IMG/VR virus record: IMGVR_UViG_3300020183_000008
Span: 32,001-96,000 of that record
Direction: 5' to 3' (one strand)
From: a virus
DNA: 64,000 nt
Shown: positions 14,217 to 32,464 of the stretch, piece after piece
Position numbering within the stretch: position 1 is the stretch's first letter
How the letters are laid out: each line of letters opens with the position of its first letter
Notes under the pieces: generated by a model
The model's input: only the letters and a program-made list of their open reading frames with translations
The model's database searches: none
Told to the model about the DNA's origin: nothing
Program-made: the position numbers and the translations under genes

Positions 14217-15073
14217 ACCCCTTCGAAATTCTAGGTTTATCCGATGATGTGACACTGGAGCAAATAAAAAAACGCTACAGACAACTGAGTCTGGAACATC
14301 ACCCCGACAGAGGGGGTGACATCGAAAAATTCAGATCAATCACGGATGCTTACTCTTTAATCAACAGTGAGCAAAACTTAAAAAATTACCGTTCTCGAAA
14401 AAATTCTATTTTTTCTTGGGACTCCGATCTTGAATCCTTTTTCGGTGACATGTTCAACGCAAAAAAACCACCTGCTCGCCGCACGATTTACACAGATGTT
14501 TACATTTCTTTCGAAGAATCTTTCACAGGATGCACCAAACATGTTTTTTATCAGGAAGTTAAAACTTGTCGAGCTTGCGGGGGTGTAGGGGCATCATCTT
14601 TTGATCCTCAAGGAAACGTAGTAAAAACATGCAACGATTGTTTAGGAGCCGGGTTTACTAACCAAACTCATCAAGCAGAGTTAAATATACCGCGCAGTGT
14701 CGCGGATGGTCATCAACTTGTAGCCGCTGATGATGTTGTAGCCACAATCCACATCGTTCCTCACGGGGACATGACCCGAAAAGGATTGGATGTGCTATCG
14801 ATGCTAAAGGTTTCTTTAAGAGATGTATTTAATGGAAGCAGGCTGCACCTTCAAACTTTGCATGGTGAAGTCGCATTTGACTTGCCACGGTGTCTCCAAC
14901 CTGACAAGATAATCAGATTAAAGAAAAAGGGATTTTTTGATGTGCGTCGGAACACCTACGGTGACCATTTGTTGACTATAAAACTTGTTATCCCTGAGTT
15001 TTCTGATGAAAATTGTGAAAAGATTGTGAGGTGCTTGGATGAAATCCAAACGAGAGAATCAAAAACTAGCTGA
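14213..15073 (+). CDS. dnaJ: DnaJ-class co-chaperone
   Basis: J-domain with HPD (HHPDRGG), two CxxCxGxG repeats (CRACGGVG, CNDCLGAG) and a C-terminal domain. Confidence 0.92.
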   Translation: MNPFEILGLSDDVTLEQIKKRYRQLSLEHHPDRGGDIEKFRSITDAYSLINSEQNLKNYRSRKNSIFSWDSDLESFFGDMFNAKKPPARRTIYTDVYISFEESFTGCTKHVFYQEVKTCRACGGVGASSFDPQGNVVKTCNDCLGAGFTNQTHQAELNIPRSVADGHQLVAADDVVATIHIVPHGDMTRKGLDVLSMLKVSLRDVFNGSRLHLQTLHGEVAFDLPRCLQPDKIIRLKKKGFFDVRRNTYGDHLLTIKLVIPEFSDENCEKIVRCLDEIQTRESKTS

Positions 15074-15596
15074 AGAGCCTCTTTTCGTACAGTTCCTCAA
15101 TTCTAAAATCGACTACAACGCAGTGGATTCTTTTTTACTGCGGCTTGAATCAATATTCCCAGAACACGAAGACAAGAAGATTGTCAAGGAGCATCGTGAA
15201 TCTTTGAAGGATCATCATTTGGAAGGTTACAAACTTGTCCAAACAAAATTCAAGGATCACATCGATTACATTCTCTCGTACAAAAACTTCGATTCAGGAT
15301 TCTCATCATGGGCTAACTTTTATCTGTCTAGCTTGCGAGAAAACAAAAGCGAGGATAAAAAAGGTAACTTAGAACGCAGGGTAAGAATTGGAGACAAGAA
15401 CGGTGATTGGTTTTCAGGCATCTTGCTCTACAACTTTAGTCTTTTTTGCCGTTACTATGGAACAGATTTGATTCGCAGATGTGACTCGAAAGTGTATTTC
15501 GTTACTCGTTCGAAATGGGATAAATATTGTTCAGATGAATGCAAAAAAGCGAAGTCATGTAAATACTCAACATCTTCTGTTAAGGTAGAAACATGA
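15039..15596 (+). CDS. Hypothetical protein with a C-terminal CGNR-like Zn-finger remnant
   Basis: IRRC...YFV...KYCSDEC. Confidence 0.5.
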   Translation: MKSKRENQKLAEEPLFVQFLNSKIDYNAVDSFLLRLESIFPEHEDKKIVKEHRESLKDHHLEGYKLVQTKFKDHIDYILSYKNFDSGFSSWANFYLSSLRENKSEDKKGNLERRVRIGDKNGDWFSGILLYNFSLFCRYYGTDLIRRCDSKVYFVTRSKWDKYCSDECKKAKSCKYSTSSVKVET

Positions 15597-16696
15597 AAGA
15601 ACTGATGATCTATCTAAAAACAACAGAAACCTGCCAATTAAATTGTAACCACTGTTTTACTAGCGGCTCAAAGGGTCGAAAGATATTCTTCGATCCAGAC
15701 AAGGTGATATCTTTTTTACAAAGATTAAACAAAACTTTCCCGTGCATTGAAAACGGAGGTACGATATCTTTTCACGGAGGTGAGCCTCTAATCGCACCTT
15801 TGGAAGATATCAAAAAAGTTTATCGAACTTGTAAAGATTTATGGAACGATCCAAAAAAACCACAATCCAAAGTCGCTTGGACTTTTCAGTCTAACCTTGT
15901 TTTTCCTTTGACGGATGAAAAGATAGAACTTATCGATGAAGTTACAGAGAAAAGACAATTTGGAACATCATGGGATTCAAAGATCCGTTTCCCAACGCTG
16001 AAAGCAGAACAGTTATGGGAAAAAAATGTTCGCACCCTTGTGGACAGAGGTTACCCTGTCACGGTGATGGTTTCTTTATCAAAACATGCGCTTGAAAAAG
16101 AACCAAAAGAAATCATACAAAAAATGATAGACCTAGGTATCAAATTTATAGCTTTTGAAAGAATAACAAACAACGGCAATGCAAAAATAAATGATGGATT
16201 GACCCCATCGAACAGAGATTTAGATGCCTACATGTTAAAAATGTGGGAACAAACACTCAAGTACAACTACCAAGAAAAAATCCACAACATTCTTTTAGAT
16301 GGTGTGGTCACATCTTTTTTAAACTCCGCTCACACAGGAGAAAGATGTCGAAACTGTGAGCAAAAAATATTTACCTTGAACGCTGATGGAACAATATCAG
16401 GATGTCCAAATTCAGCGGTAGAAAAGCCCTACGCTCAAATCGACTGGAAGATTTACGACATAATCTTTAGCAAAGGTCGGATGAAAGAAATCGCATGTGA
16501 AGCTGTGAGAAACCCGTTGTGCGCAACGTGCGAAGTAAGGGACATCTGTAACGGGGATTGTCATCAGCTCGCGTGGGAAGGTGATATTTGTGCAGCACCT
16601 AAAAGTCTGATGAAAAAAATAAAAACAAATTTACATTCAAACGATTATTATCATCAGTACGATGATTTGCAGAGATTTAAGGAGGCATCTTTATGA
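15593..16696 (+). CDS. Radical SAM/SPASM protein 1
   Basis: CQLNCNHC (CxxxCxxC), FHGGEP, and SPASM cysteines RNC...GCP...CATCEVRDICNGDC...C. Confidence 0.93.
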   Translation: MKELMIYLKTTETCQLNCNHCFTSGSKGRKIFFDPDKVISFLQRLNKTFPCIENGGTISFHGGEPLIAPLEDIKKVYRTCKDLWNDPKKPQSKVAWTFQSNLVFPLTDEKIELIDEVTEKRQFGTSWDSKIRFPTLKAEQLWEKNVRTLVDRGYPVTVMVSLSKHALEKEPKEIIQKMIDLGIKFIAFERITNNGNAKINDGLTPSNRDLDAYMLKMWEQTLKYNYQEKIHNILLDGVVTSFLNSAHTGERCRNCEQKIFTLNADGTISGCPNSAVEKPYAQIDWKIYDIIFSKGRMKEIACEAVRNPLCATCEVRDICNGDCHQLAWEGDICAAPKSLMKKIKTNLHSNDYYHQYDDLQRFKEASL

Positions 16697-17469
16697 GCGA
16701 AGTAATTACAAAAAGAGTGAAAGCTCCTCTGAGTGTTGATGAAATGAAGGATGCTTTTCTTAATAAAGCCGACAGAGACGCAGGTAAAATCAAATATATC
16801 GTTGATTACGTAAACAGCACTATCAAAGGTGATATTCTCCTTCAATATCTATCAAACCTCGAAATTCAAGCGGATTTTGATTTTACAGGAACATCTAAGC
16901 AAGAGAGATTCGACTTTCTTTTGACTTACTTCAAGATGAAAACAATCATCAAGAATAAAGATCTTAATTATGCTGCGAGTGCAGTCGTACTTCGAAGTAA
17001 AGATTTTTCAGGTGAATTCCTGAAGCAAGACTTTCTGACCAATGAAGAGGTCGATGAATTTTATACTTTGCACAAAAATTTAGTGGATAAATGGTCTTTG
17101 ATTGTTGATTCAAGTCTATTGCTATTGATTAGAGTTTCATCACCTCAAACAAGTTTGGATGCATACGAAGATATTTTGGATCCAAATTACTGCGGTGTTA
17201 ATTTTGTCAATCTTTACAATATTTCAGGTTTCTTCAATATTTTTACATCACGCCCTGCAATAAGTGAATTGAAATGGTTCACACACCAGTTCGAAAATTT
17301 TGCTTTTAATAATCAACTCCTATTCAAAATAATCAGCGATTCTGATGAGAGTTTCTTATCATCTTTTAATATGATGCGAGCGACTTTAAATGAGACTTTC
17401 TCAAAAGAATTTTTAGACCAACTAGATCAAGAATTTGATAAATTAGGAAAAGAAAATGCTATTACCTAA
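16693..17469 (+). CDS. Hypothetical accessory protein of the radical SAM locus
   Basis: 258 aa, ATGA-coupled to rSAM1, with GGAGG RBS. Confidence 0.65.
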   Translation: MSEVITKRVKAPLSVDEMKDAFLNKADRDAGKIKYIVDYVNSTIKGDILLQYLSNLEIQADFDFTGTSKQERFDFLLTYFKMKTIIKNKDLNYAASAVVLRSKDFSGEFLKQDFLTNEEVDEFYTLHKNLVDKWSLIVDSSLLLLIRVSSPQTSLDAYEDILDPNYCGVNFVNLYNISGFFNIFTSRPAISELKWFTHQFENFAFNNQLLFKIISDSDESFLSSFNMMRATLNETFSKEFLDQLDQEFDKLGKENAIT

Positions 17470-17635
17470 AAAACAATATGACGATCGCCTTAAAATATGC
17501 GCATCTTGCCCAAATTACATAAAAGTGCTTGGCATTGGTAGGTGTAAAATTTGCGGTTGCATTATGGCTGTTAAGGCTAAAATATCAGCTACAAAATGCC
17601 CTATCGAAAAATGGGACAAAAAGGGAGAGATGTAA
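17456..17635 (+). CDS. Small Cys-rich protein (DUF6171-like), missed by the ORF track
   Basis: Hand translation, 59 aa: MLLPKKQYDDRLKICASCPNYIKVLGIGRCKICGCIMAVKAKISATKCPIEKWDKKGEM. Its TAA overlaps the next ATG (TAATG). Confidence 0.8.
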   Translation: MLLPKKQYDDRLKICASCPNYIKVLGIGRCKICGCIMAVKAKISATKCPIEKWDKKGEM

Positions 17636-18225
17636 TGGCTACAGTAGGTGCAACCATCACAAGAACTACAATGAAAGATGATGGTAATTCTATACCGAAT
17701 GATCGCAACCCTCGCGCAGTGTGGTTTAGAGAGTCGAATGGAGTTCCTGTCGCTAACCCCCAAGGTGCTTGGAACTATTTCACGCCTGCGACCAACACAG
17801 AAAGATGCGCAGTTTATTTAGGTTATAAAGTAGCTACTTATAGCGAGGCTAACTACGGAGCCGCACAATCCCTCATTACAGCATCCACGATTGTAACAAA
17901 TTTCAGAGAATTAGCTAAAAGATGCACACGGTTTCAATATTTACAACATGGCGCTCAAACCAGGTCTTGTACGACTCGTTTTGACATAAATTTCGGTAAC
18001 CGTATCATAGCTAGAGATGTAGAAAATGCTAGTTTGAATTCCCAGATAGATACAATCACAGGTCCGGCGACCGGATCTATTATTTCAGCATCAGCCTTGA
18101 ATGCTTTTGTGACAAACTTGAATAACAAAGCAGCGGAATCTCTAAATATACAAAATTACTGTGACCACACTTTTTGCCACTGCTCATGTCACTCTAGTTG
18201 TCACGCTAGTCGAGCTCGACGATAG
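17635..18225 (+). CDS. Candidate radical SAM substrate: 196-aa protein with C-terminal (C-H-x-S)3-RARR tail
   Basis: Ends CDHTFCHCSCHSSCHASRARR. Start reassigned from 17596 to 17635 (AGGGAG RBS, TAATG coupling). Confidence 0.75.
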   Translation: MATVGATITRTTMKDDGNSIPNDRNPRAVWFRESNGVPVANPQGAWNYFTPATNTERCAVYLGYKVATYSEANYGAAQSLITASTIVTNFRELAKRCTRFQYLQHGAQTRSCTTRFDINFGNRIIARDVENASLNSQIDTITGPATGSIISASALNAFVTNLNNKAAESLNIQNYCDHTFCHCSCHSSCHASRARR

Positions 18226-18231
18226 GAATTT

Positions 18232-19383
18232 GTGATGAGAAAACCTTCAATTCCCACAATAAAAGATGGGTCGAACAACTATTCGGATTTTCTCGAAGCA
18301 AAATATCAGAGTCCAGTTGATGAAAACTATATCAAAAATCTTTTGAAAAAAAAGATCCCTGATGAAGCTGAAATTGAAGTCAGTCTTTTTCAGATCTGTG
18401 GTTTGAAGTGCGCTTTTTGTTGGCAAGACCACGATGATGCAACGGGTTTAAACTCTATTGTTGATAAATTTGATCCCATCTCCGCATTCGTTCAAAAAAA
18501 CCCATCGAAAAAATTCAATGTCCCTTTGATGGGCGGTGAATTGTTCGAAGATTCCAGAACATCTCAGCATTATGAAGACTACTTTACGCTCATAACAAGG
18601 GTAGATGATTTTGCTAGATCTATTGGCAAAAGAATGAAATGGATTCTGGTATCCAACTTATCTTTCAAAAACGCACAACCGGTTTTAGATTTCACAAATC
18701 GCTTAACAGAAGCAAAAAGTGATTGGTGCCTCAGTAGTTCTTTAGACTTCCACGGTAGACCCGTCGCACATTCGATCGAGACTCTCTGGCATAAAAACAT
18801 CATGCTATTCGAAAATAAAATAGCAACAATCAACATGGTTCTAACAGGACCAACCATCCGACGCTTTTTAAATCATGAAACTGATAGATCCTATTTTGAT
18901 CATCTTTATAATTCAGGTTTTCCTCTATCTTTCGACTACTACACACCGGAATCAAATGCAGCGTTGTTGATCCCATCAGATGAAGAATTACTAAATTTCT
19001 TCATCGAAATAGCGGAAAAATACCCGAAAATGGAACCGATGAGTGACTGGTTGAATAATGAACATAACACCATGAGTTGCCTGAGTCTTAACAAACTCAC
19101 TATTTTACCTAACAATCGCATGGTTACTTGTCGACAGTTGGCTTACAAGCCTGAAGATTTCCAAAATAAAATCCACTACGAAAGTAACGCCAACATAATC
19201 GAATCTTTCATCACAAAAAAAGAATGCTTATCCTGCCCTTACTTCAGTAGATGCGGGTTTTCTTGTTTTGTTTTAGATGACCATGTATATTTTTCCAGAA
19301 AACAAAAACTCAAAGAGTGCCTTTACAAAATGATGTTCAGACATATAGAGGCGAAAAATGGATTTAATAATCAAACCAACTGA
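18232..19383 (+). CDS. Radical SAM/SPASM protein 2
   Basis: CGLKCAFC, MGGEL, and SPASM SC...VTC...CLSCPYFSRCGFSC...EC. Confidence 0.92.
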   Translation: MMRKPSIPTIKDGSNNYSDFLEAKYQSPVDENYIKNLLKKKIPDEAEIEVSLFQICGLKCAFCWQDHDDATGLNSIVDKFDPISAFVQKNPSKKFNVPLMGGELFEDSRTSQHYEDYFTLITRVDDFARSIGKRMKWILVSNLSFKNAQPVLDFTNRLTEAKSDWCLSSSLDFHGRPVAHSIETLWHKNIMLFENKIATINMVLTGPTIRRFLNHETDRSYFDHLYNSGFPLSFDYYTPESNAALLIPSDEELLNFFIEIAEKYPKMEPMSDWLNNEHNTMSCLSLNKLTILPNNRMVTCRQLAYKPEDFQNKIHYESNANIIESFITKKECLSCPYFSRCGFSCFVLDDHVYFSRKQKLKECLYKMMFRHIEAKNGFNNQTN

Positions 19384-20413
19384 GGTTTGCAATTTCGCTT
19401 GCACTTTTTGCAGCTCGACAAAAATAGCAGATCGTAAAAATCAAGTTTTAGACTTAAATCTCATTTTTGATTTTCTCAAGAGATTCCCTCAAACCAACAC
19501 AATCATCGTGAACGGAGGGGATCCCTTAGTTATAAATCCAAGTTATTATTGGAAAATAATCGAATACCTTGACCAAAACGACCTTCCTGCAATTATTAGT
19601 TTTACGACAAACCTTTGGGATTTTTACAAAAAACCTGAAAAATGGCTAGATTTGTTTAGAAACTACAGACGGCTACAAGTCGCCACATCATTCAATTACG
19701 GTGATACCCGAAGAATTTCAAAAAACAGGGTTTTCACAGAAGATGATTTTTGGAAAATTAGTGACTTGATGAAAGAACTCGTTGGGTATCGACCTGGTTT
19801 CATTTCAGTCATCACTGAAGAAAACGAGGATACAGCGATTGATAATGTTCGACTCGCCAAAAAAATGGGTGTTGAGTGTAAACTAAATTACGCTATGGCT
19901 TCAGGTGCCCAAAACAAGCCTTTTTTACTTTCCAAAATTTATAAAATTTACCTTCAAATTTACAGGCAAGGTTTAGCACCTTGGGAATTCAATACCAAAC
20001 AAATGACTGCACGTTTGAAAGATGTCCCAACTGTATGCCCACTAAATAGAAATTGCGATTCAGGGATTCGATGCCTTCAACCGAACGGAGCGTACCATTC
20101 TTGCGGAGCGTTCGGAGATGACAATTTCGAAGACAACAAAAAATACGAGATCGATTTCAAGAAAGAAGTTTATGAAAAGCAATTTTTCTTACCGTTGAAA
20201 CAGGACTATACGATTCAAAGAATGAAAGACGAATGCCTCACTTGCCCCATGTTTAAGATATGTAACGGTTGCCATAAGACAATCAAGGACTACAAAAATC
20301 TAAATCTCGTGGAAGAGCATTGCTCTTTGATGAAAGAAATAGCACCTGAGATTATAGAAACTAAACTTTTTGCACCAGATATTGTTAAACAAATAGCTGA
20401 ATTACCATTATGA
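19358..20413 (+). CDS. Radical SAM/SPASM protein 3
   Basis: CNFACTFC, NGGDP, and CPLNRNC...HSC...CLTCPMFKICNGC...HC. Confidence 0.93.
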   Translation: MDLIIKPTEVCNFACTFCSSTKIADRKNQVLDLNLIFDFLKRFPQTNTIIVNGGDPLVINPSYYWKIIEYLDQNDLPAIISFTTNLWDFYKKPEKWLDLFRNYRRLQVATSFNYGDTRRISKNRVFTEDDFWKISDLMKELVGYRPGFISVITEENEDTAIDNVRLAKKMGVECKLNYAMASGAQNKPFLLSKIYKIYLQIYRQGLAPWEFNTKQMTARLKDVPTVCPLNRNCDSGIRCLQPNGAYHSCGAFGDDNFEDNKKYEIDFKKEVYEKQFFLPLKQDYTIQRMKDECLTCPMFKICNGCHKTIKDYKNLNLVEEHCSLMKEIAPEIIETKLFAPDIVKQIAELPL

Positions 20414-21333
20414 ACATATCATTAAACCCTAGCTACCTTTGTAATTTGCGATGTGAATTCTGCTATCTAGGTGAAAAATTAGGTGACCCTAAGCGCATCG
20501 ACCTTCAGGTGTTGGATCAGAGACTCGCGGCTGTTAACGAAATTTCAAAAATCGAACAAATTGACCTGTACGGTGGTGAAATTCTTATACTACCCGATGA
20601 TTACTTGAGACAGCTTATGAATGTGATAAAAAATCACTATCAAGGGTCAATAAATTTAATAACAAATCTTACAAAAATGAAAAGATGGTTTATCGAGAGA
20701 GATGATATTGAATTATCAGTTTCTTTTGATTTCGAAGCTAGATCCGCTTTTCAAAATACTTTAAATAATTTGATGACACTCAAAAAGCCTGTGTCGATAT
20801 TGATGCTCGCATCACCTAAATTGATGAGTTTAGATTTTGAAGAAATGCTAAATATTCTAAATCGAATACCTTGCATCCAATCCGTAGAGATAAAGCCTTA
20901 CTCATCGAATCAATACAACCAACTCGAAACAAAATTCTCTGAATACGAAAGTTTTGTAAAGAAATTTGTTGTTGCTTTCGAAACAGAGAAACTCAAGCCT
21001 TTCTTAACGAACGTGCAGTATATCCAAGATTCCATCAGCCTTGAAAGAAATGCTTTTTCCGACAATCATATCTACATAACACCATCTGGAAAATTCGGTG
21101 TATTAGAATTCGATGATAAAGACCATGAATTTTTCTTAGAATTAGATTCTCTCGATGACTATTACGCTTGGGCAACAAAAGAAAAAATGAAAATCAAAAA
21201 CAATTATTTTTGTTCTGAATGCAAATGGCAAGGGCATTGCCTTACAGAGCACTACAGAGAAGTCAAAGATATTACCCATTCATGCAATGGATTCAAACAC
21301 CTGTTGGAGTGGTATGAAAATGCGGGAACATAA
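20410..21333 (+). CDS. Radical SAM protein 4 with a reduced SPASM-like C-terminus
   Basis: CNLRCEFC, YGGEI and C-terminal CSECKWQGHCLTEH...SCNG. Confidence 0.9.
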   Translation: MNISLNPSYLCNLRCEFCYLGEKLGDPKRIDLQVLDQRLAAVNEISKIEQIDLYGGEILILPDDYLRQLMNVIKNHYQGSINLITNLTKMKRWFIERDDIELSVSFDFEARSAFQNTLNNLMTLKKPVSILMLASPKLMSLDFEEMLNILNRIPCIQSVEIKPYSSNQYNQLETKFSEYESFVKKFVVAFETEKLKPFLTNVQYIQDSISLERNAFSDNHIYITPSGKFGVLEFDDKDHEFFLELDSLDDYYAWATKEKMKIKNNYFCSECKWQGHCLTEHYREVKDITHSCNGFKHLLEWYENAGT

Positions 21334-21853
21334 AATTAGACAAGCGTTGTATCACAAAATAGCAAATCTCGATGACATACTCGATGATGTAGAAAAGCTA
21401 GAGCCTGTCGTATATCGAGAGAATGAGTCCGACAGAGATACAGCCCTCACCATCATCAGATATTTCCGTGAGGAAATCAGAGAACTTATCTACCCAGCTA
21501 AACCGTTCGTAGTGGCTCTCGTTTACGCGTGTCTTTTAGAAAGACACTTTTGTGAGCCTTTTTATGAATCGATATCCGACCCTGATTTGCTACATGGAAA
21601 TGATAAATGGTTCAAACCGTATTGTGATGAAACCAAAGACATTTACGACCATGCAATTTTTCATCTAGGGGCTGAATTGGATTTCATCGTTAGTGATGAA
21701 TTACAATACATACCTTCACAAATCAGGTCGACTATTGAATATTTCAAAAAAGAATTTTTAATTGAAACTAACTACTTACCTGTGCTGCCGAATCCACCTT
21801 CACCTCTGTCCGACTCATCTAATTCAGACACAACGGTGAAATCTAAATCATAG
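21314..21853 (+). CDS. Hypothetical accessory protein of the radical SAM locus
   Basis: Overlaps the rSAM4 end. GGAG at 21306 favours a start at 21314 or 21320 rather than 21287. Its 3' end overlaps dut on the opposite strand. Confidence 0.6.
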   Translation: MKMREHKIRQALYHKIANLDDILDDVEKLEPVVYRENESDRDTALTIIRYFREEIRELIYPAKPFVVALVYACLLERHFCEPFYESISDPDLLHGNDKWFKPYCDETKDIYDHAIFHLGAELDFIVSDELQYIPSQIRSTIEYFKKEFLIETNYLPVLPNPPSPLSDSSNSDTTVKSKS

Positions 21854-22235: not shown

Positions 22236-22841
22236 ATGCTAAACGATTTTTTCCGTAAAGGCTTTTACACAAATTGTTTAGAAAAAACACATTGTGATGA
22301 AATGCTACACATAGTCCAGTCCATAAATTTTATAGAAAGCCTAGATTACAGAGATGTTGGTTACAAACCACCTCTTATTGCTGAATGGGATGATATCGAT
22401 GATCCCATCGTGTCTGCTCATAACTGCCAAGAAAACTTGAAAAAGTATTGGTTAAAATTCAAAGAATACCTAAAACCTTTAGAAAATATAGCGGGTAGAT
22501 TCGACTCCGGTTCTGTAATTGTCAATAACTTCCCAAAAGGTCACGGTATGAATTGGCATTCAGACACGGTTGACACAGCGTTTGTGCAAATGCTCATATA
22601 TTTGTCAAAAGATTATTTTGACAAAGATGATGGGGGTTATTTGCAAATAGGTGATAGTTTTATCCTACCTAATCATGCTACGATGGTCATTATGAACAAT
22701 ATCTCACCTACAATGTTACATAGGGTAGAGCCGCTCATCACAGAAAAAGAGCGATTGACCGTTGTCTTTCGATACGGGTACATGAACAACACCCTTACAA
22801 AAAAAAGGCTTCTCACCATGAAAGGTGAAATCCGTGATTGA
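22236..22841 (+). CDS. 2OG-Fe(II) oxygenase (prolyl-hydroxylase-like fold)
   Basis: WHSD (HxD), DGGYL, LHRV distal His and RLT 2OG-binding Arg. Confidence 0.85.
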   Translation: MLNDFFRKGFYTNCLEKTHCDEMLHIVQSINFIESLDYRDVGYKPPLIAEWDDIDDPIVSAHNCQENLKKYWLKFKEYLKPLENIAGRFDSGSVIVNNFPKGHGMNWHSDTVDTAFVQMLIYLSKDYFDKDDGGYLQIGDSFILPNHATMVIMNNISPTMLHRVEPLITEKERLTVVFRYGYMNNTLTKKRLLTMKGEIRD

Positions 22842-23439
22842 ATTGGATCTCACAAGTTACTTTCACAAAGGCTACACCGTTACCGATTTAGGATCGGATG
22901 TCGATGGAATCCTAGCTGATATGAGAAATCAAAATTGGGTTGAAAAAGATGACCTTTTGAAACCGGATTGGGACAATCATTCACATCTCAATAAAGCTAC
23001 TGATTATCTTTATGATGCTGTCAGAGATTTCTCTCAGTCCGGCTATTATTCGTGGTTCACGAAAATTTACGGTGGATTTACGCAGCGAACCATCATGGCG
23101 AGAAAATGGACAGGTCAAAGCACGAACTGGTTCAACGAATCTCGTCTAGGGGCATTCAACGCAAATATTCTCTTTCTCGGTAAAGGTGACCCGACCGTAA
23201 GCCTTCAAATCGGACAAGCCGATTGTGATGAAAATGGTCGAATCGAAGGTGTGATTGAGAATGTTTCAACAATTCACCCTAAACACGGAACACTGGTTAC
23301 CTTGTACAACATAAACCCTTGCGTTGTTCGAAGATTTTTGAACGAAGAAAACACAGGGGAATGGTATACTCTGCATTTCTATCTTGGATTTATTGAAAAC
23401 ACTCTGTTGAGAGAGGTTTCAGGTGTTCCACTTATTTAA
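22825..23439 (+). CDS. Degenerate 2OG-Fe(II) oxygenase paralogue
   Basis: Aligns by eye with 48888..49547 (FHKGYT, PDWD, YGGFTQRT, HGTLV..N..P), but HxD is replaced by FNE and the distal His and Arg are lost. Confidence 0.65.
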   Translation: MKSVIELDLTSYFHKGYTVTDLGSDVDGILADMRNQNWVEKDDLLKPDWDNHSHLNKATDYLYDAVRDFSQSGYYSWFTKIYGGFTQRTIMARKWTGQSTNWFNESRLGAFNANILFLGKGDPTVSLQIGQADCDENGRIEGVIENVSTIHPKHGTLVTLYNINPCVVRRFLNEENTGEWYTLHFYLGFIENTLLREVSGVPLI

Positions 23440-24364
23440 AAATACCTATCTCGACATTCAGGGTACATCCAATCCGACCGGTTTTAAGGCACTCTCAACT
23501 GATAATTTCACGATCAAAGATGTAGCTGCTTTAAAAAGTAACGAAAAAATAATTTATTCTGTACCGAAATTTACTTTCACAAAAATTGTGATCGAATACA
23601 TTAAAGAATTGTTCCCTAGTGCATACCCACCGTTGATCATGGAAATTTACGGGATTGTTATGGCGAGAATGACCTATCAGCTCGCCTACCTCACGGATAA
23701 TCAAACAAGAAACACTTATATTGATTGTAATCTTCCATCGGATTCAATAAAAGTTCTGTTGGAAATAACAAAATATAAAGGTTTATTTGAAGGTGATTTC
23801 AAAAGACATGTTGGTATAGAATGGTTACTTTGTGATTATTTCAATGATGGGATTTATTCAGATGAATTTCAAAAAAGATTTCGAGAACTTTTGGTAAAAA
23901 ATATTGTTTACTCGGTTCAAGAGATAAAACATGAAATGTTGTATAAAGTTTTTAATCTTCCGAAAATGTACTTGAACTATAACAACGTAGAAGAATTGTT
24001 TTCAAAAGATATCGGAGTCCAATTCTTATTCGACCCTAGCCTAAACAACGCGACTCACCTTATGACTCGATATAAGATCGAAGACATAGCGGATTTGTTT
24101 CATACATTTACCAAAATGTATAACAAGGGGTACGACAAAGCCAAATACCAAGAAATGACTCTTTTAAGTCTTTTCCTACTCAAAGCGATCTCTTGTTTAA
24201 AATCAGGGAATTGCGATGCGATGATGAAAGAAGAAATACAAAGAGATTTCTCTATTATTTTTGGACATCATCGATTCATGAGAAAAATCAATTGTCTTTT
24301 GATAGATTGGATTTACCAACAAAAAAGGCAAAAAAATAAAGAACTTGAAGTATTAATTCTTTAA
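23423..24364 (+). CDS. Hypothetical protein, last gene of the radical SAM/oxygenase locus
   Basis: 313 aa, GTG start with GAGG RBS, overlapping the upstream gene. Confidence 0.65.
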   Translation: MFHLFKNTYLDIQGTSNPTGFKALSTDNFTIKDVAALKSNEKIIYSVPKFTFTKIVIEYIKELFPSAYPPLIMEIYGIVMARMTYQLAYLTDNQTRNTYIDCNLPSDSIKVLLEITKYKGLFEGDFKRHVGIEWLLCDYFNDGIYSDEFQKRFRELLVKNIVYSVQEIKHEMLYKVFNLPKMYLNYNNVEELFSKDIGVQFLFDPSLNNATHLMTRYKIEDIADLFHTFTKMYNKGYDKAKYQEMTLLSLFLLKAISCLKSGNCDAMMKEEIQRDFSIIFGHHRFMRKINCLLIDWIYQQKRQKNKELEVLIL

Positions 24365-24979
24365 CTTTAATAATTTCGCAGGCACACCCACATAAACACC
24401 TGCTTGTGATAAGTCGGAAACGACTGCGCTTTGTGCACCTGTCGATACATCATCCGCGATCACGATTTCCTCGCGGATCGCCGTCCCTGTACCTAAAGTC
24501 ACATTCTTGCCAACAATTACATTACCTGAAACATGAGTGCCAGGATTAACGGTAACAAAATCACGCAAAACAGAATCATGCCCTACAGTGCAACTGATGT
24601 TTAAAACAACGTAGTCACCTATCGAGACATTTGTCGTTACGATGCAATTTGGAGCAATTATACCACCCACACCCAAAATAGCATCCTGAACTAAAGATTT
24701 GGGGTGGACATAGGTAGGTGCCGGTTTCAAACCAACTGAAAGAGCCTTTTCCACCATAACTCTTTTAGCGTTAGGACTTCCTATTCCGATGATAAATAAA
24801 TGCACACCGTATTCAGTAAAATCCCAATTTTTAACCACAGGATAAACTCTATTATTGAGTTTTAGTTCAGAGGTATCTGTAACATCATCTACAAAAATAA
24901 AGTCGGTGTATTGACCTTGTAAATGCCAATACACCTCTCGCGCTAAACCACCTGCACCTAGTATTACAATCTTGCTCAT
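24353..24979 (-). CDS. NeuD/PglD-type sugar acetyltransferase (hexapeptide repeat)
   Basis: IVILGAGGLARE, IGIGSP, HP, VGHD and left-handed beta-helix repeats, ending VGVPAK. Confidence 0.9.
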   Translation of the reverse strand: MSKIVILGAGGLAREVYWHLQGQYTDFIFVDDVTDTSELKLNNRVYPVVKNWDFTEYGVHLFIIGIGSPNAKRVMVEKALSVGLKPAPTYVHPKSLVQDAILGVGGIIAPNCIVTTNVSIGDYVVLNISCTVGHDSVLRDFVTVNPGTHVSGNVIVGKNVTLGTGTAIREEIVIADDVSTGAQSAVVSDLSQAGVYVGVPAKLLKLKN

Positions 24980-25014
24980 GAGACTAAGCTACCACGAGAA
25001 TAAACCACTGTCTA

Positions 25015-26370
25015 TCAGGCGTACCTTGCGGTGTTCGCAAGTTGAGCAACATCTGAAAAGAGGGCATAACGAGCGAAATTCAAACTATAAAGAGAAAAAT
25101 TGTCAAACCAGACCGTACCGGGATTCACATCCACAGCAATAACAGCGCGAACGAATCTAGCGTTTGCGGGGAATTGGTTGACGCTTCCCCCTTCATTACG
25201 GCAAAGATTTTGCGAATAACCATCAGCAAAAGTTGTCGCCGTAAAAGTAGTGCTGTTTAGCAACCAATATTCCTGATTCGCCGCAGGAGTGATATAATTC
25301 AAATCCTTATCATAAAAACGGCACCCTACACGAATGGTGCCTGTGCCACCGTTCACGCGAGTTTGAACTACACCACCAATCCCTTGAGTGGGGGATGCTG
25401 GGAAATGAGACCTAGCGTGAACATTCGAAAGAGAACCATCGCTAACATTTAAGGTATCTACTGTCGCTTCCCAAATGCCTGTGCCAGTAATCGAATACGT
25501 TCCAAAACCCATTGCAGAAGTAGATGAACTATCAAATGAAAGAGTTCCTGAACCTGAAACTCTTCTCCAAAAATTCACGCACGCTTGCTTGTTCGCCCAA
25601 TTTATTGGAGTGAGCGTAAAAGGGGTATTTGTTACGACTTGAGTGAAATTTAAATAAATAGTTGTTGTAGAAATCGCATGACCTACTGTGACAACATAAC
25701 CGTTCAAAGGACGCACGTTTGTAATCGCACCGGCTGTCGTGCTTAAAAAATAATTTTGACCTGCGTTCAAACCAGTCGTAGGAGCAAGACCTGAGAAATA
25801 AACATCCCCTGTGCTACCTGAAACATTCTGAATCATACCGAGAGCGAATTGGTTTACACTCGTAGCACCTACAGGAACGTATGCACCTGCTCCAGACAAA
25901 GCAGTGGGATCCCATCTTACGATTTGTCCATTGGAACAACCCGATTGAGATTGAGAACGACGAATATCAGGATTTGCTTCTTCAGTACGAAGATTTACAA
26001 GAAGGGTCGTCTCGTTCAAAGCAACACCAACGGTAATTACCAATCCATGCTCAGGTCTTGTTGATGTGATAGATCCAGCGGAAGACTGACTGAGATAATA
26101 AATAGTTCCCGCTACAAGTCCGGAATACCCCGTAATTCGACCATCTTGTACGATCAAATCACCCGTACCACCATTTACGTTGACAACAACACCTGCGGCT
26201 TGCGCGTTCGTGAAATTGTTAGCTTGCGCAGGTACATAGGCAGAACCATTAAATCGAACAACTTGCCCGCTAGTCACACCAGAAATGGGTACATCCAACA
26301 AGTACGCTGTATTTACGCGCTCGTCATCACCTCTAACCCAGTATATTGTACTTCTCGGAATCCGTGGCAT
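25015..26370 (-). CDS. Tail fibre / virion appendage protein
   Basis: Two approximately 95-aa repeats (GQVVRF...GLVAGTIYYLS...RP...VGVAL and GQIVRW...GLNAGQNYFLS...RP...VGHAI) plus a C-terminal beta-sandwich-like domain; next to baseplate genes. Confidence 0.7.
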   Translation of the reverse strand: MPRIPRSTIYWVRGDDERVNTAYLLDVPISGVTSGQVVRFNGSAYVPAQANNFTNAQAAGVVVNVNGGTGDLIVQDGRITGYSGLVAGTIYYLSQSSAGSITSTRPEHGLVITVGVALNETTLLVNLRTEEANPDIRRSQSQSGCSNGQIVRWDPTALSGAGAYVPVGATSVNQFALGMIQNVSGSTGDVYFSGLAPTTGLNAGQNYFLSTTAGAITNVRPLNGYVVTVGHAISTTTIYLNFTQVVTNTPFTLTPINWANKQACVNFWRRVSGSGTLSFDSSSTSAMGFGTYSITGTGIWEATVDTLNVSDGSLSNVHARSHFPASPTQGIGGVVQTRVNGGTGTIRVGCRFYDKDLNYITPAANQEYWLLNSTTFTATTFADGYSQNLCRNEGGSVNQFPANARFVRAVIAVDVNPGTVWFDNFSLYSLNFARYALFSDVAQLANTARYA

Positions 26371-26395
26371 AAAAACCTCAATTATTAGGCATTTA

Positions 26396-28432
26396 TCAAA
26401 TTGTATTGCAGGTCACAGAAACGGATCCCAAAAGAGGTAACCCTGTCATATAATCTTTGTGCCCCGCTGGACCGTTATTCACAACACCCCCTTGAGCCAA
26501 ACTTCCAATTTTAACCAAAGGAGCATTCAACTCAATTTGTAATGCTTTCAAACTCAATCTTAATGCAGATAAGTTCATTACCCCAGCGAGAGTCGAAATC
26601 GTTACATTTCCAACCAAAGTTTTCAAATCTATGTTCCCTACACCCACCTGAACTTTGAAATTACCCACACCAATTTTAGTTTCTCGCTTACCGAGAAGAA
26701 TATCTTCGGTGATGGTACCTGCTAACATTTTCGTTTTTTTACTACCTAAGAGCATTTCTAGTTCTTTATTACCTAATAGAATTCTCTCGAAATCAGCAGT
26801 CGTACTACCTTTCGTTACGTTCGGGCTTGCAATCACCACCCTCCTACCAAAACCGATGTTGGTCTGTTGGTCGAGAGTGATGTTTTCACGCAACCCACCA
26901 CCGTAATTGTTGCTTTTATCTTCAACAAAGTTGTCTACTTTTTTACCCAAGACACGATGCTCTAGTTTACCATTTACTTGAACAATTTCATCGCCTCGTA
27001 TTTCAGTATACCGACTACCCTCGATGACCATATCTACGTTGCCCGCTAAACGTATTCTAGCTGCATTTCTTTGTGTATCTGTACCTGCAACCTCAAGATT
27101 CAAACCTTTTTCTAACAACAAGTCGAGAGATCTACTGCGGGTACTTTCCGCACCGAAACGCATCCGTACACCACCCTCGGTATCCAACAACAGGCTCCGA
27201 CCATCTGATGATTGTTTTCCGATAACCATCTTCAGTGAACCGAGTAAACCTATGTTCGCTGATCTTCCTGAGCCCATAGGATAGATCGCGGAAGACCTGT
27301 CTAATGAAAACTCTAGTACGCCCTCTTTGTTAAACGACAAACTTGTTTTTGTGTTCGGTAGTTTTACTTGAAAAGCAGTTGCTTGTTTTTCATCACCGTT
27401 GATACCGTTTGAAGTTTCGACAGGTATATCATCGGTGATTATGTCTTTTCTATTGTCAGAAGAAAACACAACGGATCTTAAAATTTTTCCGTATTTGTAT
27501 TTCCCTTCTTTGGAAATGGGATCGTTCCCTACCAAAGTACCGAGAGAAAAAGATACTAAAGGTTTTTTTACAATTCCATCTTTGTCGGATCCTGAACCTG
27601 AAATCAAAGGATCTTGGTTTGAATAAACAGATTCTTCAGGCGCACCTACGCTATCATCAGCGGTTTCTAATAAATCAAGTCTAAACTCAGTGAATGATTT
27701 TACTCCCGCAGCTCCGTATGGAGACTCACCATAAGGAAAGTTGAGATGCTTCGGTGAATTTGTAACTCTGAAAAACTTTCTTCCATCTGCAAGATATCGA
27801 ACAGCAGGGTTAAATTGATTTGAGAACTCAGGATGATCGATCAACTCATTTCTATGGATTAAACCAAAATTTAAGCGCCCTGCTTTTGAATTCAAAGTTT
27901 GATTTACAGCAAGAAACGACATCACGTTTGAAAAACTGTCGAGATTTATTTCATTAAAACTAGAATCTTGGAGGAAAATAGACCTGTCTATGCGAACATC
28001 AGAACCATGTTTAGATGAAATCAGAAACTCACCTGGATATAGCTTCCACTGCTTTAATCGTGAAAGAAGCCGCAAATTATCAGCATCCGAGATATTCGTG
28101 CTGCGTAACCTAAAAGGGTCAAAAAGATAAGAAAAATAAGGAGAAACGGGCAGGAATCCCTCAACAATCGGCAGACCCTCACCAACCGTATTATGCATGT
28201 AAGAAACAATCGCGATTGAACCTTCAGTAGGCATACCTCCCATAAAGGAACCTACAAAAGAATTCATGTTCGAGAAAGGCACGGCTGTGCTGAAAGCATC
28301 CGCATCCAAAAAACGAATATCAACGGTCATCCTAAAATAGTCTACCCGAATGACCTCAGCGTATCTTTTTCTTTGTGAATCTACTTTATTTTTGAAATTG
28401 GAATAAGGTTTTCTATCAAACTTAGACATCAA
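26396..28432 (-). CDS. Baseplate central spike (gp5/VgrG-like)
   Basis: N-terminal OB-fold-like region (VIRVDY...MP.EGS) and C-terminal beta-helix repeats (LLGNKE, LLGSKK, LAGTIT, GVGNFK). Confidence 0.7.
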   Translation of the reverse strand: MMSKFDRKPYSNFKNKVDSQRKRYAEVIRVDYFRMTVDIRFLDADAFSTAVPFSNMNSFVGSFMGGMPTEGSIAIVSYMHNTVGEGLPIVEGFLPVSPYFSYLFDPFRLRSTNISDADNLRLLSRLKQWKLYPGEFLISSKHGSDVRIDRSIFLQDSSFNEINLDSFSNVMSFLAVNQTLNSKAGRLNFGLIHRNELIDHPEFSNQFNPAVRYLADGRKFFRVTNSPKHLNFPYGESPYGAAGVKSFTEFRLDLLETADDSVGAPEESVYSNQDPLISGSGSDKDGIVKKPLVSFSLGTLVGNDPISKEGKYKYGKILRSVVFSSDNRKDIITDDIPVETSNGINGDEKQATAFQVKLPNTKTSLSFNKEGVLEFSLDRSSAIYPMGSGRSANIGLLGSLKMVIGKQSSDGRSLLLDTEGGVRMRFGAESTRSRSLDLLLEKGLNLEVAGTDTQRNAARIRLAGNVDMVIEGSRYTEIRGDEIVQVNGKLEHRVLGKKVDNFVEDKSNNYGGGLRENITLDQQTNIGFGRRVVIASPNVTKGSTTADFERILLGNKELEMLLGSKKTKMLAGTITEDILLGKRETKIGVGNFKVQVGVGNIDLKTLVGNVTISTLAGVMNLSALRLSLKALQIELNAPLVKIGSLAQGGVVNNGPAGHKDYMTGLPLLGSVSVTCNTI

Positions 28433-30618
28433 TTTTTACCTTTTCCAGAAGTATTGTTCTTCGCAGATGAGGGGGATGCGTTAGCTATTGTACCTGATTT
28501 GTCTCTACTAGATTTATTTTTAGTCTTCGTTGGAGATGGTACATCTTTTCTTTCCGCAGTCGGAGTCATGTTAGAGAGTTTTCTTGTAATTGTTAATCTT
28601 TGATTTGATGTATCTAAATTCAAAGAAGTTTTCTTAGGCTGAATCTGACCTTTTGAATCTAGTAGAAGATTTGATCCATAAGATATAACACCAACTAAAT
28701 CATAACCATCGGTGTCAGTGATGGGTTGAACCCCTGAGTTGAAAAAATCTCCATCAGAAGTTCTAGCTTTAGTCACTTGTCTTCTTTGGTTCATTTTCGT
28801 GCCTGTGCCCTTGATTTTATTGGCACTTTCTAAGGACTGCTTTTCGTTTGATAACTCATCATAATCTAGCTTATTTAACTGCGCTTGATTTGATGTCGTG
28901 CTCGGTCTCATGACCATGTTAGGACCGTACGGGCTTTTATATCGGAACGCTTCTAATGTAAGAGTCGTTCTCGCTGAACTACCGAAAGATAAGCTATGGC
29001 TAATTCCAGTGACATACGCGAAACAATTTTTCTCTTCGAAATAAATAGGGTAACCCAATTTTATCTCTGGAGTCAGAGGAATAGTAATTGAACCTGTCAT
29101 TCTTCTTGCATTGTGTCTATCCATTTCGTTCTGAGCGTATATTGCAAGAAGTTTTGATTGGTCAGACTCTTTAAATGAACCCACCATCTGTAAATCAGTT
29201 GTTTGCGCTCGAATACCGTATTTTTCAGCTAGTCGAGCATCAAAAGCGACACCGACATGTTGAATCTCTCCCGCTGTAGAAAATTCTTGCGTCAAAGATC
29301 CACGTACCGAAAAAAGCGTGAAAACATCATCCGATTCATCAATAGAGAAATCAAATATATCTTCATCTTTAATAACAAAAGGTCTATATGCTCGAACATC
29401 GATGTTGAAAAAAGGAGGCTTAAATACTATTTGACCATCGAGAGACATATAAAATTCATAGCCGATGTAATCTTTACAGGTTGTCGCGATGTCAAATAAT
29501 GAACTGAAAGATGAATTATCGACGGTATCAATATCAGCTATTTGACCATAAGGTGCAGCATTATCGATGAGTTGCTGCATCATCCTATCCAACCCAGAGT
29601 TATCAAAAGATGTTGATACTGATGCATCGACCGCATCATCGACATCTCTTAAACTCTGTGAAATAGATGATGCACCTTCAGTGCCTAGAACAACTGATTG
29701 AGACTTACTGTCTTTTCTGCTTTCAAGCTGAATGTTTGCCGATCGAAACTCAGATGCGTTTACTTTATCCTGAGGGTCTAAACGATTTTTTTGTTTGTTT
29801 AATTGTTCACCTCGGCTACCCTTATAACCAAAAATGATCAAATCAATAAAATTCGTATCATTGTTTTGGTCTAACCCAAACCTCTTAGTCCAATAATCAG
29901 CCAAAATATCATTCTGAAGATTTACCAAATCTTTTTTTGAAATTGGTTCATAGGTAGTAGACCTAAGAGCGCCGGTAAAAGATATTGTATTGAATGTTTC
30001 TGGGACGAAAGCTGCATTTATTGGAGTACCATCAGGAGATTTTCTTTGACCCCCGAACGCAAAATTGACTATCTCTTTGATAATTTCTTTTGGATTTTTT
30101 TTCTTAAAAACACCCACATACGGAACTGATGCAGCCCCCGTGTTTTCCATAGCCAAAACACTAGGACGTAAATTCATTTTTGTTATCTGCATCCAATAAA
30201 GCATATCAACACACTGAATTGAAAGAGTGTGTGTTTCACCTGAATAACTTTCATTGACAGACCTAACTATACCATGAAACTGCTGATAAGGTGGGGGTAA
30301 TTCAAGAACACCAGAAGAATTGACCGTGTGGAATCGACCTTTTAAGAAAATCTTAACTTCCATCATAGGTTTTATGATCGTTTGACCATCGGAAAAATAC
30401 TTTGAATACTCGCTTCTAGGCACTGATATTTCAAAAGACGCTGATGCAGGTGGAGCATCCACGTTTCCATTGATAGATAAGTTTGTTATATCATCGTTGA
30501 AATTTACACGCTCACCTTTTGAAGACTCAATATAACTTAACTGATTGATTAAAATGAAACCATCTGGCGCATATCTTTGCACTATCTTATGGGTATAAGT
30601 TTGCTTCAGATGTTTCAT
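28429..30618 (-). CDS. Baseplate hub protein (gp27-like)
   Basis: YEFYMSLDGQIVFKPPF, KYGIR, GSITIPLTPEIKLG and YVTGISHS...TTLTL. Confidence 0.72.
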   Translation of the reverse strand: MKHLKQTYTHKIVQRYAPDGFILINQLSYIESSKGERVNFNDDITNLSINGNVDAPPASASFEISVPRSEYSKYFSDGQTIIKPMMEVKIFLKGRFHTVNSSGVLELPPPYQQFHGIVRSVNESYSGETHTLSIQCVDMLYWMQITKMNLRPSVLAMENTGAASVPYVGVFKKKNPKEIIKEIVNFAFGGQRKSPDGTPINAAFVPETFNTISFTGALRSTTYEPISKKDLVNLQNDILADYWTKRFGLDQNNDTNFIDLIIFGYKGSRGEQLNKQKNRLDPQDKVNASEFRSANIQLESRKDSKSQSVVLGTEGASSISQSLRDVDDAVDASVSTSFDNSGLDRMMQQLIDNAAPYGQIADIDTVDNSSFSSLFDIATTCKDYIGYEFYMSLDGQIVFKPPFFNIDVRAYRPFVIKDEDIFDFSIDESDDVFTLFSVRGSLTQEFSTAGEIQHVGVAFDARLAEKYGIRAQTTDLQMVGSFKESDQSKLLAIYAQNEMDRHNARRMTGSITIPLTPEIKLGYPIYFEEKNCFAYVTGISHSLSFGSSARTTLTLEAFRYKSPYGPNMVMRPSTTSNQAQLNKLDYDELSNEKQSLESANKIKGTGTKMNQRRQVTKARTSDGDFFNSGVQPITDTDGYDLVGVISYGSNLLLDSKGQIQPKKTSLNLDTSNQRLTITRKLSNMTPTAERKDVPSPTKTKNKSSRDKSGTIANASPSSAKNNTSGKGKN

Positions 30619-31937: not shown

Positions 31938-32464
31938 ACCTCAACCGTCGTCCTATGAACTTCGAAGTTAAAATTAAAGTTATAATTAAAAGGTTTTTCA
32001 GCTACTTCTTCCCAACTGAAATTTACAAATTGTCCAGTGAAAACATATTTATCCCAACTTATGCTTATAAAACCTTGAGAAATAACGATACCTTTGTCGT
32101 TGTAGACACAGGCGTTGTTTCTATAAAGAGACAGTATCTCTTGAAAATTTATCATCGCAAGAGTTTTGCTTCTTTGAGATATGTTGACTCCATTTATTAA
32201 ACTGAAAAAACCTCCAGTAGATGCATTTACCTGTAAAGTATCCAACTCATCTCCAAAATGCTCTTCTACAAAACCACCTCTAGTCCTAGAACGGGTGATG
32301 TTTTTTCTGTACGAAAAAGTCAAAGATGTAGGGCTAATATGAAGTTCTATCGTCGGTACGATAACTTCTTTACGGTCTAAAGGATTTATTACACCAGTCA
32401 TGCTGATCCGCATGGTAATCAATTTTGTTTGTGATGAAGGTCTCGCTGGTGTTCTTACCCTCAT
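31934..32464 (-). CDS. Baseplate/tail-tube initiator-like protein
   Basis: ISPTSL...EEHFGDEL...GQFVNFSWEEVAEKPF.YNFNF; directly follows the tape measure gene. Confidence 0.6.
   Translation of the reverse strand: MRVRTPARPSSQTKLITMRISMTGVINPLDRKEVIVPTIELHISPTSLTFSYRKNITRSRTRGGFVEEHFGDELDTLQVNASTGGFFSLINGVNISQRSKTLAMINFQEILSLYRNNACVYNDKGIVISQGFISISWDKYVFTGQFVNFSWEEVAEKPFNYNFNFNFEVHRTTVEV

Follow-up and report, generated by a model that had tools for sequence, protein, structure and literature searches.

Radical S-adenosylmethionine (SAM)/SPASM maturases have been associated with secreted small peptides, with sulfatases and a few cofactors and, from 2026 on, with a single bacterial defence effector. 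Freyrasin, with six C-x3-D units, exemplifies short repeated Cys units that are each closed by a SPASM radical-SAM enzyme, and QhpD, another SPASM radical-SAM enzyme, installs several Cys thioethers in QhpC, a subunit kept within a larger assembly. To our knowledge, the CXXX-repeat target family (TIGR04117) is itself uncharacterised. The closest described system to the locus reported here is HXS, by functional resemblance only; in this antiphage system, which blocks DNA entry, the protein HxsA with its five H-x-S repeats is matured by the radical-SAM enzymes HxsB and HxsC together with HxsD (Li et al. 2026, PMC13128918). A +8 Da change was mapped to the last repeat of HxsA, next to basic residues (PMC13128918). 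Here we analyse a 64,000-nucleotide stretch of viral DNA (the window; positions 32,001 to 96,000 of IMG/VR record IMGVR_UViG_3300020183_000008) that encodes, within a run of four radical-SAM genes (rSAM1 to rSAM4), a 196-aa protein with a C-terminus of three Cys-His-x-Ser units and a short basic end. We propose that this tail protein is probably a protein-sized radical-SAM substrate, modified on its tail. The source record is a lake virus contig of 155,270 bases whose completeness CheckV estimates at 35%, so the phage genome must be very large. The gene and its tail lie as follows:

17635..18225, plus strand: tail protein gene, 196 aa; alpha/beta body at residues 1-180 plus C-terminal tail; presumed substrate
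18175..18210, plus strand: three C-H-x-S units, CHCS CHSS CHAS; residues 181-192; Cys and His invariant in the family
18211..18222, plus strand: R-A-R-R at the C-terminus (family consensus R-G-R-R); residues 193-196; stop codon at 18223-18225

Like HXS, the locus places a whole protein with tandem H-x-S repeats beside more than one radical-SAM enzyme and small helpers, and H-x-S is literally present in each tail unit, with Cys as an additional invariant residue. Unlike in HXS, the repeats stand at the extreme C-terminus and are followed by R-x-R-R, the radical-SAM genes number four to eight, and the genes are encoded by phages and predatory bacteria. The first-pass annotation had used the H-x-S triplets to connect the protein with HxsA precursors, a connection that survives as analogy only. 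In NCBIfam searches run up to E 10, neither the window protein nor any of three relatives matched the HxsA model; no HxsB match was listed among the NCBIfam results for the cassette radical-SAM enzymes; and the HxsC model (TIGR03977) scored 24.6 bits with rSAM3 and 19.1 bits with rSAM4 against a cut-off of 267.9. Membership in HXS was set aside because none of these models was matched. A looser kinship would make the tail protein a basic, His/Arg-rich effector, matured by radical-SAM enzymes like HxsA, that binds DNA at entry and serves the phage either for superinfection exclusion or as a decoy for an HXS-type defence in the host. The H-x-S triplets, the basic R-x-R-R end and the precedent of a DNA-entry block matured by two radical-SAM enzymes favour this idea, which we nonetheless give only a slim chance. 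Beyond the unmatched Hxs models, Pfam detected no peptidoglycan-binding domain, and no obvious signal-like segment was seen by eye in the N-terminus MATVGATITR. Cys is invariant here and lies outside the H-x-S motif that defines HXS, and a homologue was found in virion preparations (see below) rather than shown in the host periplasm.

The tail is the best-conserved part of the family

Re-reading the sequence bore out the first-pass description of a CHCS-CHSS-CHAS-RARR tail with its repeat at 18175-18210; C-D-H-T-F directly precedes it. The ATG of the gene overlaps the stop codon of a 59-aa gene upstream (TAATG), and we place the start at 17635 and not at the ATG at 17596 because homologues begin at the same Met-Ala. 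The three units read TGC CAC TGC TCA, TGT CAC TCT AGT and TGT CAC GCT AGT, and thus use both Cys codons and both Ser codon boxes; the synonymous variation between units remarked upon earlier (TGC/TGT for Cys, TCA and AGT for Ser) is real.

A word-indexed search recovered three relatives, and an exhaustive HMMER search 37 cluster representatives, two of them spurious. The remaining 35, which are 21-58% identical to the window protein, make up alignment A2. No column of A2 is invariant other than Met1 and the Cys and His of C-H-x-x-C-H-x-x-C-H, and at least 90% of rows have the last Ser. Most sequences (31/35) end in R-x-R-R, and the other four stop right after the last unit. The closing residues of these four representatives (P0016, P0024, P0027 and P0035) are CHGS plus L or I, and one subfamily can therefore dispense with the basic terminus. 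Unit number ranges from 3 to 6 in the family, with five or six C-H-x-x units in a protein from the syntenic 355-kb viral contig L001 (8001-8558) and in P0010 and P0011. The L001 protein has five units but is accompanied by only four radical-SAM enzymes, and the number of enzymes therefore does not follow that of the units.

The consensus of 129 distinct tails is [VILY]-C-H-[SAT]-S-C-H-[ST]-S-C-H-[GST]-S-R-G-R-R. Both Cys, both His and both Ser-box codons are freely used among them, indicating selection at the protein level, as had been suggested from the window alone. About 77-92% of tails have Ser at position 4 of the unit, most of the others having Asn, and the third residue of the last unit is G in 53, S in 41, T in 22, N in 8 and A in 4, never P. 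Judged from these sequences, the tail is under strong protein-level selection, far more constrained than the domain that carries it and far beyond chance. The family is otherwise hard to see: neither Pfam nor NCBIfam assigned the tail protein to a family; an ESM Atlas search returned only viral hypothetical clusters at sub-threshold scores; and tblastn of the window protein against 50,697 phage records gave no match even though homologues are present there, which surfaced instead through rSAM1 and a PHROG match to the tail protein.

Such invariance would also suit a cofactor site, and Cys-His pairs are typical metal ligands. The tail might accordingly be an unmodified metal site (Zn, Fe or Fe-S on CX3CX3C plus His) and the protein an accessory of the radical-SAM enzymes, such as a cluster donor, an electron carrier or a scaffold, while the enzymes modify a fibre protein, DNA or a small molecule. 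We regard this as unlikely: the number of units varies from 3 to 6, and neither the conserved Ser/Asn at position 4 nor the terminal R-x-R-R would have an obvious role in a metal site.

The tail extends from a compact body

AlphaFold2 on A2 predicts the monomer as a compact globular alpha/beta domain with a predicted local distance difference test (pLDDT) score of 84 and a predicted template modelling (pTM) score of 0.81, from whose last beta-strand the tail emerges directly, without a linker and at low confidence. Foldseek found nothing in the PDB at E <= 0.001 with the body model; the best hit of a wide VIA-align search was to a designed protein (Z 5.9); and the BFVD matches were uncharacterised family members only, one of them from Agrobacterium phage Atu_ph07. 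A fibre identity for the body, suggested in the first-pass annotation, was set aside in view of the globular monomer model and the lack of a match to any known fold. The same annotation had noted a duplicated motif in the body; both strings exist and each opens a long predicted helix, but BLASTP of the two halves gave no alignment, and an internal duplication was likewise set aside.

Because no linker is apparent, and because neither a protease nor an exporter was recognised when the named cassette genes were searched for known families, body and tail probably remain joined, and the view of the body as a long leader is probably wrong. That view would have the tail of about 16 residues cut off as a small modified peptide (a toxin, signal or chelator), with the 180-residue body as a giant leader. 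The gene logic does resemble that of peptides that are ribosomally synthesised and then modified post-translationally (RiPPs), and a five-unit homologue weakly matches models of Cys-rich radical-SAM targets (TIGR04135, 15.9 bits; TIGR04117, 13.7 bits). A released peptide is nevertheless very unlikely: besides the lack of a recognised protease or exporter, there is no linker or cleavage motif in a tail that starts directly after the last beta-strand; an invariant "core" on a variable "leader" is the reverse of most RiPPs; and peptides covering 35% of a full-length homologue were recovered from virion preparations. A constant core borne by a variable carrier has more in common with cross-linked subunits and protein-derived cofactors than with RiPPs of the antibiotic type.

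The tail gene is linked to radical-SAM genes across phages

The tail gene lies in a co-oriented run of overlapping genes in the window:

15039..15596, plus strand: 185-aa protein upstream of rSAM1, shared with the syntenic contig L001
15593..16696, plus strand: rSAM1; full SPASM cysteine set, no N-terminal extension; closest solved relative anSME
16693..17469, plus strand: phrog_20767 protein, 258 aa; constant companion of the tail gene
17456..17635, plus strand: 59-aa Cys-rich protein (DUF6171, phrog_13558), by Pfam/PHROG match
18232..19383, plus strand: rSAM2; CGLKCAFC; C-x2-C-x5-C-x3-C near the C-terminus
19358..20413, plus strand: rSAM3; best-conserved cassette enzyme, 52-73% identical to most orthologues, one at 42%
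20410..21333, plus strand: rSAM4; CNLRCEFC; shorter C-terminal Cys motif
21287..21853, plus strand: phrog_20737 protein; usual last gene of the core cassette
22236..22841, plus strand: 2-oxoglutarate (2OG)-Fe(II) oxygenase; homologues interspersed in many cassette copies
22825..23439, plus strand: 204-aa open reading frame (ORF) overlapping the 2OG oxygenase gene; no Pfam or PHROG match
23423..24364, plus strand: "MFHLFK" family protein; recurs beside tail genes in phage RSL2 (ORF069), in L002 and L003, and in the G001 island

L001, whose tail protein is 33% identical to that of the window, has the same genes, with the tail gene shifted to just after rSAM1. A degenerate DNA pattern for the tail detected at least 120 viral loci and 32 contigs in a bacterial/archaeal genome collection, all 32 of the latter (L126-L157) labelled as metagenome-assembled genomes or bins. 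BLAST-detectable orthologues of rSAM1-4 were present at 99 of the 122 loci with a tail ORF, usually in the order rSAM1, tail protein, phrog_20767, rSAM2, rSAM3, rSAM4, phrog_20737. The remaining loci mostly carry a short form of the tail protein (125-140 aa, with an "LRTFDKT" motif), usually as a tandem pair, which sits directly behind fibre- or collagen-like ORFs, several hundred to some 2,800 aa long, and directly precedes 3-7 divergent CxxxCxxC (radical-SAM) ORFs; viral contigs L028, L054, L083, L085, L036 and L119 are examples.

Overall, 136 of 151 tail loci had a CxxxCxxC ORF within 8 kb of the tail gene, and so did 60 of the 61 with adequate flank; in the single exception, the sequence ends 1.6 kb downstream. 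In all 11 distinct cultured phages that have an rSAM1 orthologue, the tail protein is encoded immediately downstream of it. Cultured carriers are Atu_ph07, Phosso, RSL2, RSF1, FLC6, FLC8, three FLC4 isolates, RsoM3USA, SURPRISE13 and pPa_SNUABM_DT01, and the hosts belong to Agrobacterium, Sinorhizobium, Ralstonia, Burkholderia and Pseudomonas. Linkage between the tail protein and radical-SAM genes is thus near-obligate, and homologues that lack radical-SAM neighbours, or in which the tail has decayed, either of which would have counted against the first-pass proposal, were not encountered where the flank suffices and in A2, respectively. We found no description of the tail, or of what the cassette is for, in the literature, with subscription journals largely outside the search; jumbo-phage papers only list the radical-SAM genes, and a 2026 jumbo-phage review does not mention them.

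Co-occurrence alone cannot separate a partner of the enzymes from their substrate, and at many loci the giant fibre genes directly upstream could be the true substrates, as an accessory role for the tail protein would have it. Tandem paralogues with divergent bodies and the same tail look, however, like multiple substrates, and the small Cys-rich protein of the cassette is better suited to be a carrier.

The enzymes resemble peptide and protein maturases

All four radical-SAM enzymes match phrog_1802, and rSAM1, rSAM3 and rSAM4 also match the Pfam radical-SAM model (PF04055); rSAM2 has no Pfam match and carries CxxxCxxC as CGLKCAFC. Most of the best NCBIfam matches to rSAM1, rSAM3 and rSAM4 are maturases of peptides or proteins (DarE, anSME, PapB, GrrM, DynA), although YfkAB heads the list for rSAM4; rSAM2 gave only two weak matches (ryptide maturase and SPASM domain; E about 0.005-0.01). 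All of these scores are far below family cut-offs, and the four enzymes therefore belong to no named family. The SPASM model TIGR04085 scored 26.8 bits with rSAM1 against a cut-off of 27; among 36 rSAM1 orthologues, the radical-SAM triad C14/C18/C21 and the C-terminal SPASM cysteines are invariant. An rSAM1 profile aligns end to end with anSME, SPASM motif included (4K36-4K39, E 3e-8). The C-terminal Cys motifs of rSAM2, rSAM3 and rSAM4 were read by eye.

The likeness to anSME, whose target is a Cys within a whole protein of folded size, extends to domain layout: both enzymes include a SPASM domain, and both lack a recognition domain at the N-terminus. The differences are a TIGR03942 score of 44.5 bits (cut-off 349.45), a body that is not that of a sulfatase, and three units and an invariant His that have no counterpart. 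The last unit and first Arg of the window protein (C-H-A-S-R) fit the minimal sulfatase motif C-x-A-x-R (of C/S-x-P/A-x-R), which we treat as a lead only, the third position being rarely A in the family. The PapB/freyrasin system and other ranthipeptides and sactipeptides share the short Cys units in a row, and PapB is among the best NCBIfam matches of rSAM1 at 37 bits; they differ in that the cut-off is 340, no Asp/Glu acceptor is present, the repeats sit on a protein of 125-365 residues, and four or more enzymes take the place of one. For the QhpD/QhpC system there is a weak match to TIGR03906 (E 0.0013), with no real sequence kinship, a different motif and no dehydrogenase partners. In the TIGR04117/TIGR04115 pair, C-x-x-x repeats likewise stand at a C-terminus beside a SPASM radical-SAM enzyme; the TIGR04117 score, obtained with the five-unit L001 homologue only, compares with a cut-off of 50, and TIGR04115 gave 25.8 bits against 350 with rSAM1, so that neither protein is a member. 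As judged by sequence scores, then, none of the HXS, anSME, PapB, QhpD and CXXX-repeat systems passes the comparison for family membership.

In the mechanism that we envisage, the tail protein would be the substrate of a dedicated cassette of several radical-SAM enzymes, which mature it. Its first ~180 residues would form a compact domain and its last 16 residues a flexible tail off the final beta-strand, and the four neighbouring radical-SAM enzymes would probably act on that tail after translation, with the phrog_20767 and phrog_20737 proteins, the small Cys-rich protein and the 2OG oxygenases as putative helpers. The likeliest reactions would cross-link Cys through thioethers, oxidise it to formylglycine, or join His by a carbon link to the beta-carbon of Ser, and the product would be a modified protein with its body attached and not a released peptide.

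Among these helpers, the phrog_20767 protein was modelled at pLDDT 84 and had neither a Foldseek match nor a VIA-align hit at Z >= 5. Only two long alignments came up, one with ChlB (Z 4.0, 129 residues) and one with anSME (Z 3.5, 138 residues), each involving the C-terminal half of the radical-SAM enzyme. Both are too weak for use; they hint that the modelled protein may be a degenerate enzyme remnant.

A homologue is found in virion preparations

Atu_ph07 encodes a 296-aa homologue directly after the radical-SAM protein gp171. Its size fits that of gp170, listed at 31.89 kDa in Table S5 of the published analysis (PMC6102473), and neighbouring gp numbers and masses agree. The protein gp170 yielded eight unique peptides, at 35% coverage, from gel slices 1 to 9, with its highest abundance in slice 1 (PMC6102473). 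In the same gel, slices 1-3 hold the peaks of proteins above 75 kDa and slice 8 those of proteins near 30 kDa; gp170 is the only well-supported protein below 40 kDa that peaks at the gel top (PMC6102473). The homologue was thus recovered from particle preparations as a high-mass form, stable to sodium dodecyl sulfate (SDS) and heat and far above monomer size. The cassette proteins gp164, gp165, gp168, gp169 and gp171 do not appear in Table S5 (PMC6102473); that the homologue is in the preparations and the enzymes are not sits poorly with an accessory of those enzymes. Of the earlier suggestion that the tail might be carried on a virion protein, the presence of gp170 in published virion preparations lends support to the virion part; the monomer model did not point to a fibre-like body.

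Bacterial copies and fibre-type neighbours

The rSAM1 profile matches 18 of 401 sampled Bdellovibrionota genomes at E <= 1e-107. About 20 of the 32 genome-collection tail matches are labelled Bdellovibrionota; some of the 32 are true chromosomal islands, and others may be phage contigs placed in bacterial bins. In Bdellovibrionota contigs of 1.29 Mb and 2.45 Mb, the cassette forms an island of roughly 8-11 kb. Neighbours of the former include pth, prs, ychF, def, fmt and lgt, which we take from their N-termini to be housekeeping genes; the surroundings of the latter hold unassigned ORFs and CRISPR-associated genes. Within the 40 kb examined around each island, nothing was recognised as a phage structural gene. 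One bacterial copy has the variant tail CHSS-CHAD-CHYA-RGRR.

Two genes adjoin Bdellovibrionota copies and are absent from the phage loci examined: one for a 413-aa protein whose N-terminus is pilin-like and whose C-terminus carries a Peptidase_S74 intramolecular-chaperone domain (PF13884, E 9e-14), a hallmark of trimeric fibres, and one for a 200-aa "MGxLSxKLxxITFG" protein. The pair is found at L169:3163-5006 (G001:C1, about 299.2-301.0 kb) and also in L167, L128, L132, L142 and L156.

Fibre-type neighbours recur at the short-form phage loci, in the bacterial islands, in RSL2, in Atu_ph07 and, as a gene with a weak minor-tail/tape-measure match on the other strand, in the window. In Atu_ph07, a giant structural gene lies six genes upstream; in RSL2, the nearby "virion structural" and "baseplate" labels are RefSeq annotations only.

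Weighing a modified tail

We favour the reading of the tail protein as a radical-SAM substrate because the tail alone is invariant while bodies fall to 21% identity, because synonymous codons vary freely within it, and because the gene keeps company with radical-SAM genes. The alignment of rSAM1 with anSME, a modifier of Cys in a whole protein, points the same way, as do the best NCBIfam matches (mostly peptide and protein maturases, far below their cut-offs) and the recovery of gp170 from virion preparations in the top gel slice; HXS provides a precedent (PMC13128918).

The motif, its conservation, the near-obligate gene linkage and the presence of a homologue in virion preparations are observed, whereas modification of the tail, the enzyme responsible and the role of the modified tail are inferred. 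Several observations weigh on the other side. The Atu_ph07 preparation was only purified with polyethylene glycol and also held ribonucleotide reductase, topoisomerase, single-stranded DNA-binding protein and terminase (PMC6102473); its loading buffer lists no reductant (PMC6102473), so that the high-mass gp170 species could be plain disulfides or aggregates. Pfam and NCBIfam detected no RiPP recognition element (RRE/PqqD-like) in the cassette. When rSAM1 (alignment A3) was modelled in complex with the tail protein (A2) plus SAM and three 4Fe-4S clusters, the interface score (ipSAE) was 0.01 in both runs, a result that we use neither way. Since the chromosomal copies stand in 40 kb that lack recognised phage structural genes, a virion is not required for function, and in the window and L001 the cassette borders replication genes, not tail genes alone.

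What the matured tail would do is a more speculative matter. It is conceivable, if on balance doubtful, that several radical-SAM enzymes and oxygenases turn Cys, His and Ser into a new protein-derived centre, reactive or metal-binding, which phages and predatory Bdellovibrionota alike would mount beside their fibres so that it either ties the protein covalently into their attack apparatus or acts on the envelope of the prey. Radical-SAM peptide chemistry would then belong to infection machinery instead of to antibiotics or cofactors. More generally, 4-8 radical-SAM genes appear to be devoted to one protein tail in at least 120 viral contigs, in varied phage types including cultured phages, and in predatory bacteria. 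Should the proposed modification be borne out, phage proteins would have a widespread and undescribed post-translational chemistry, seemingly associated with particles and fibres, and a function would be given to four or more genes annotated only as "radical SAM protein" and to phrog_35144, phrog_20767, phrog_20737 and DUF6171. Tail modification is directly testable in the cultured phages.

Beyond the cassette, the minus strand of the window encodes a PglD-like hexapeptide acetyltransferase (24353-24979) followed by large ORFs in 25015-34995. One of these, ~8 kb downstream, is the gene with the weak minor-tail/tape-measure match mentioned above, and the ORFs of 24353-34995 are probably a tail module facing the cassette.

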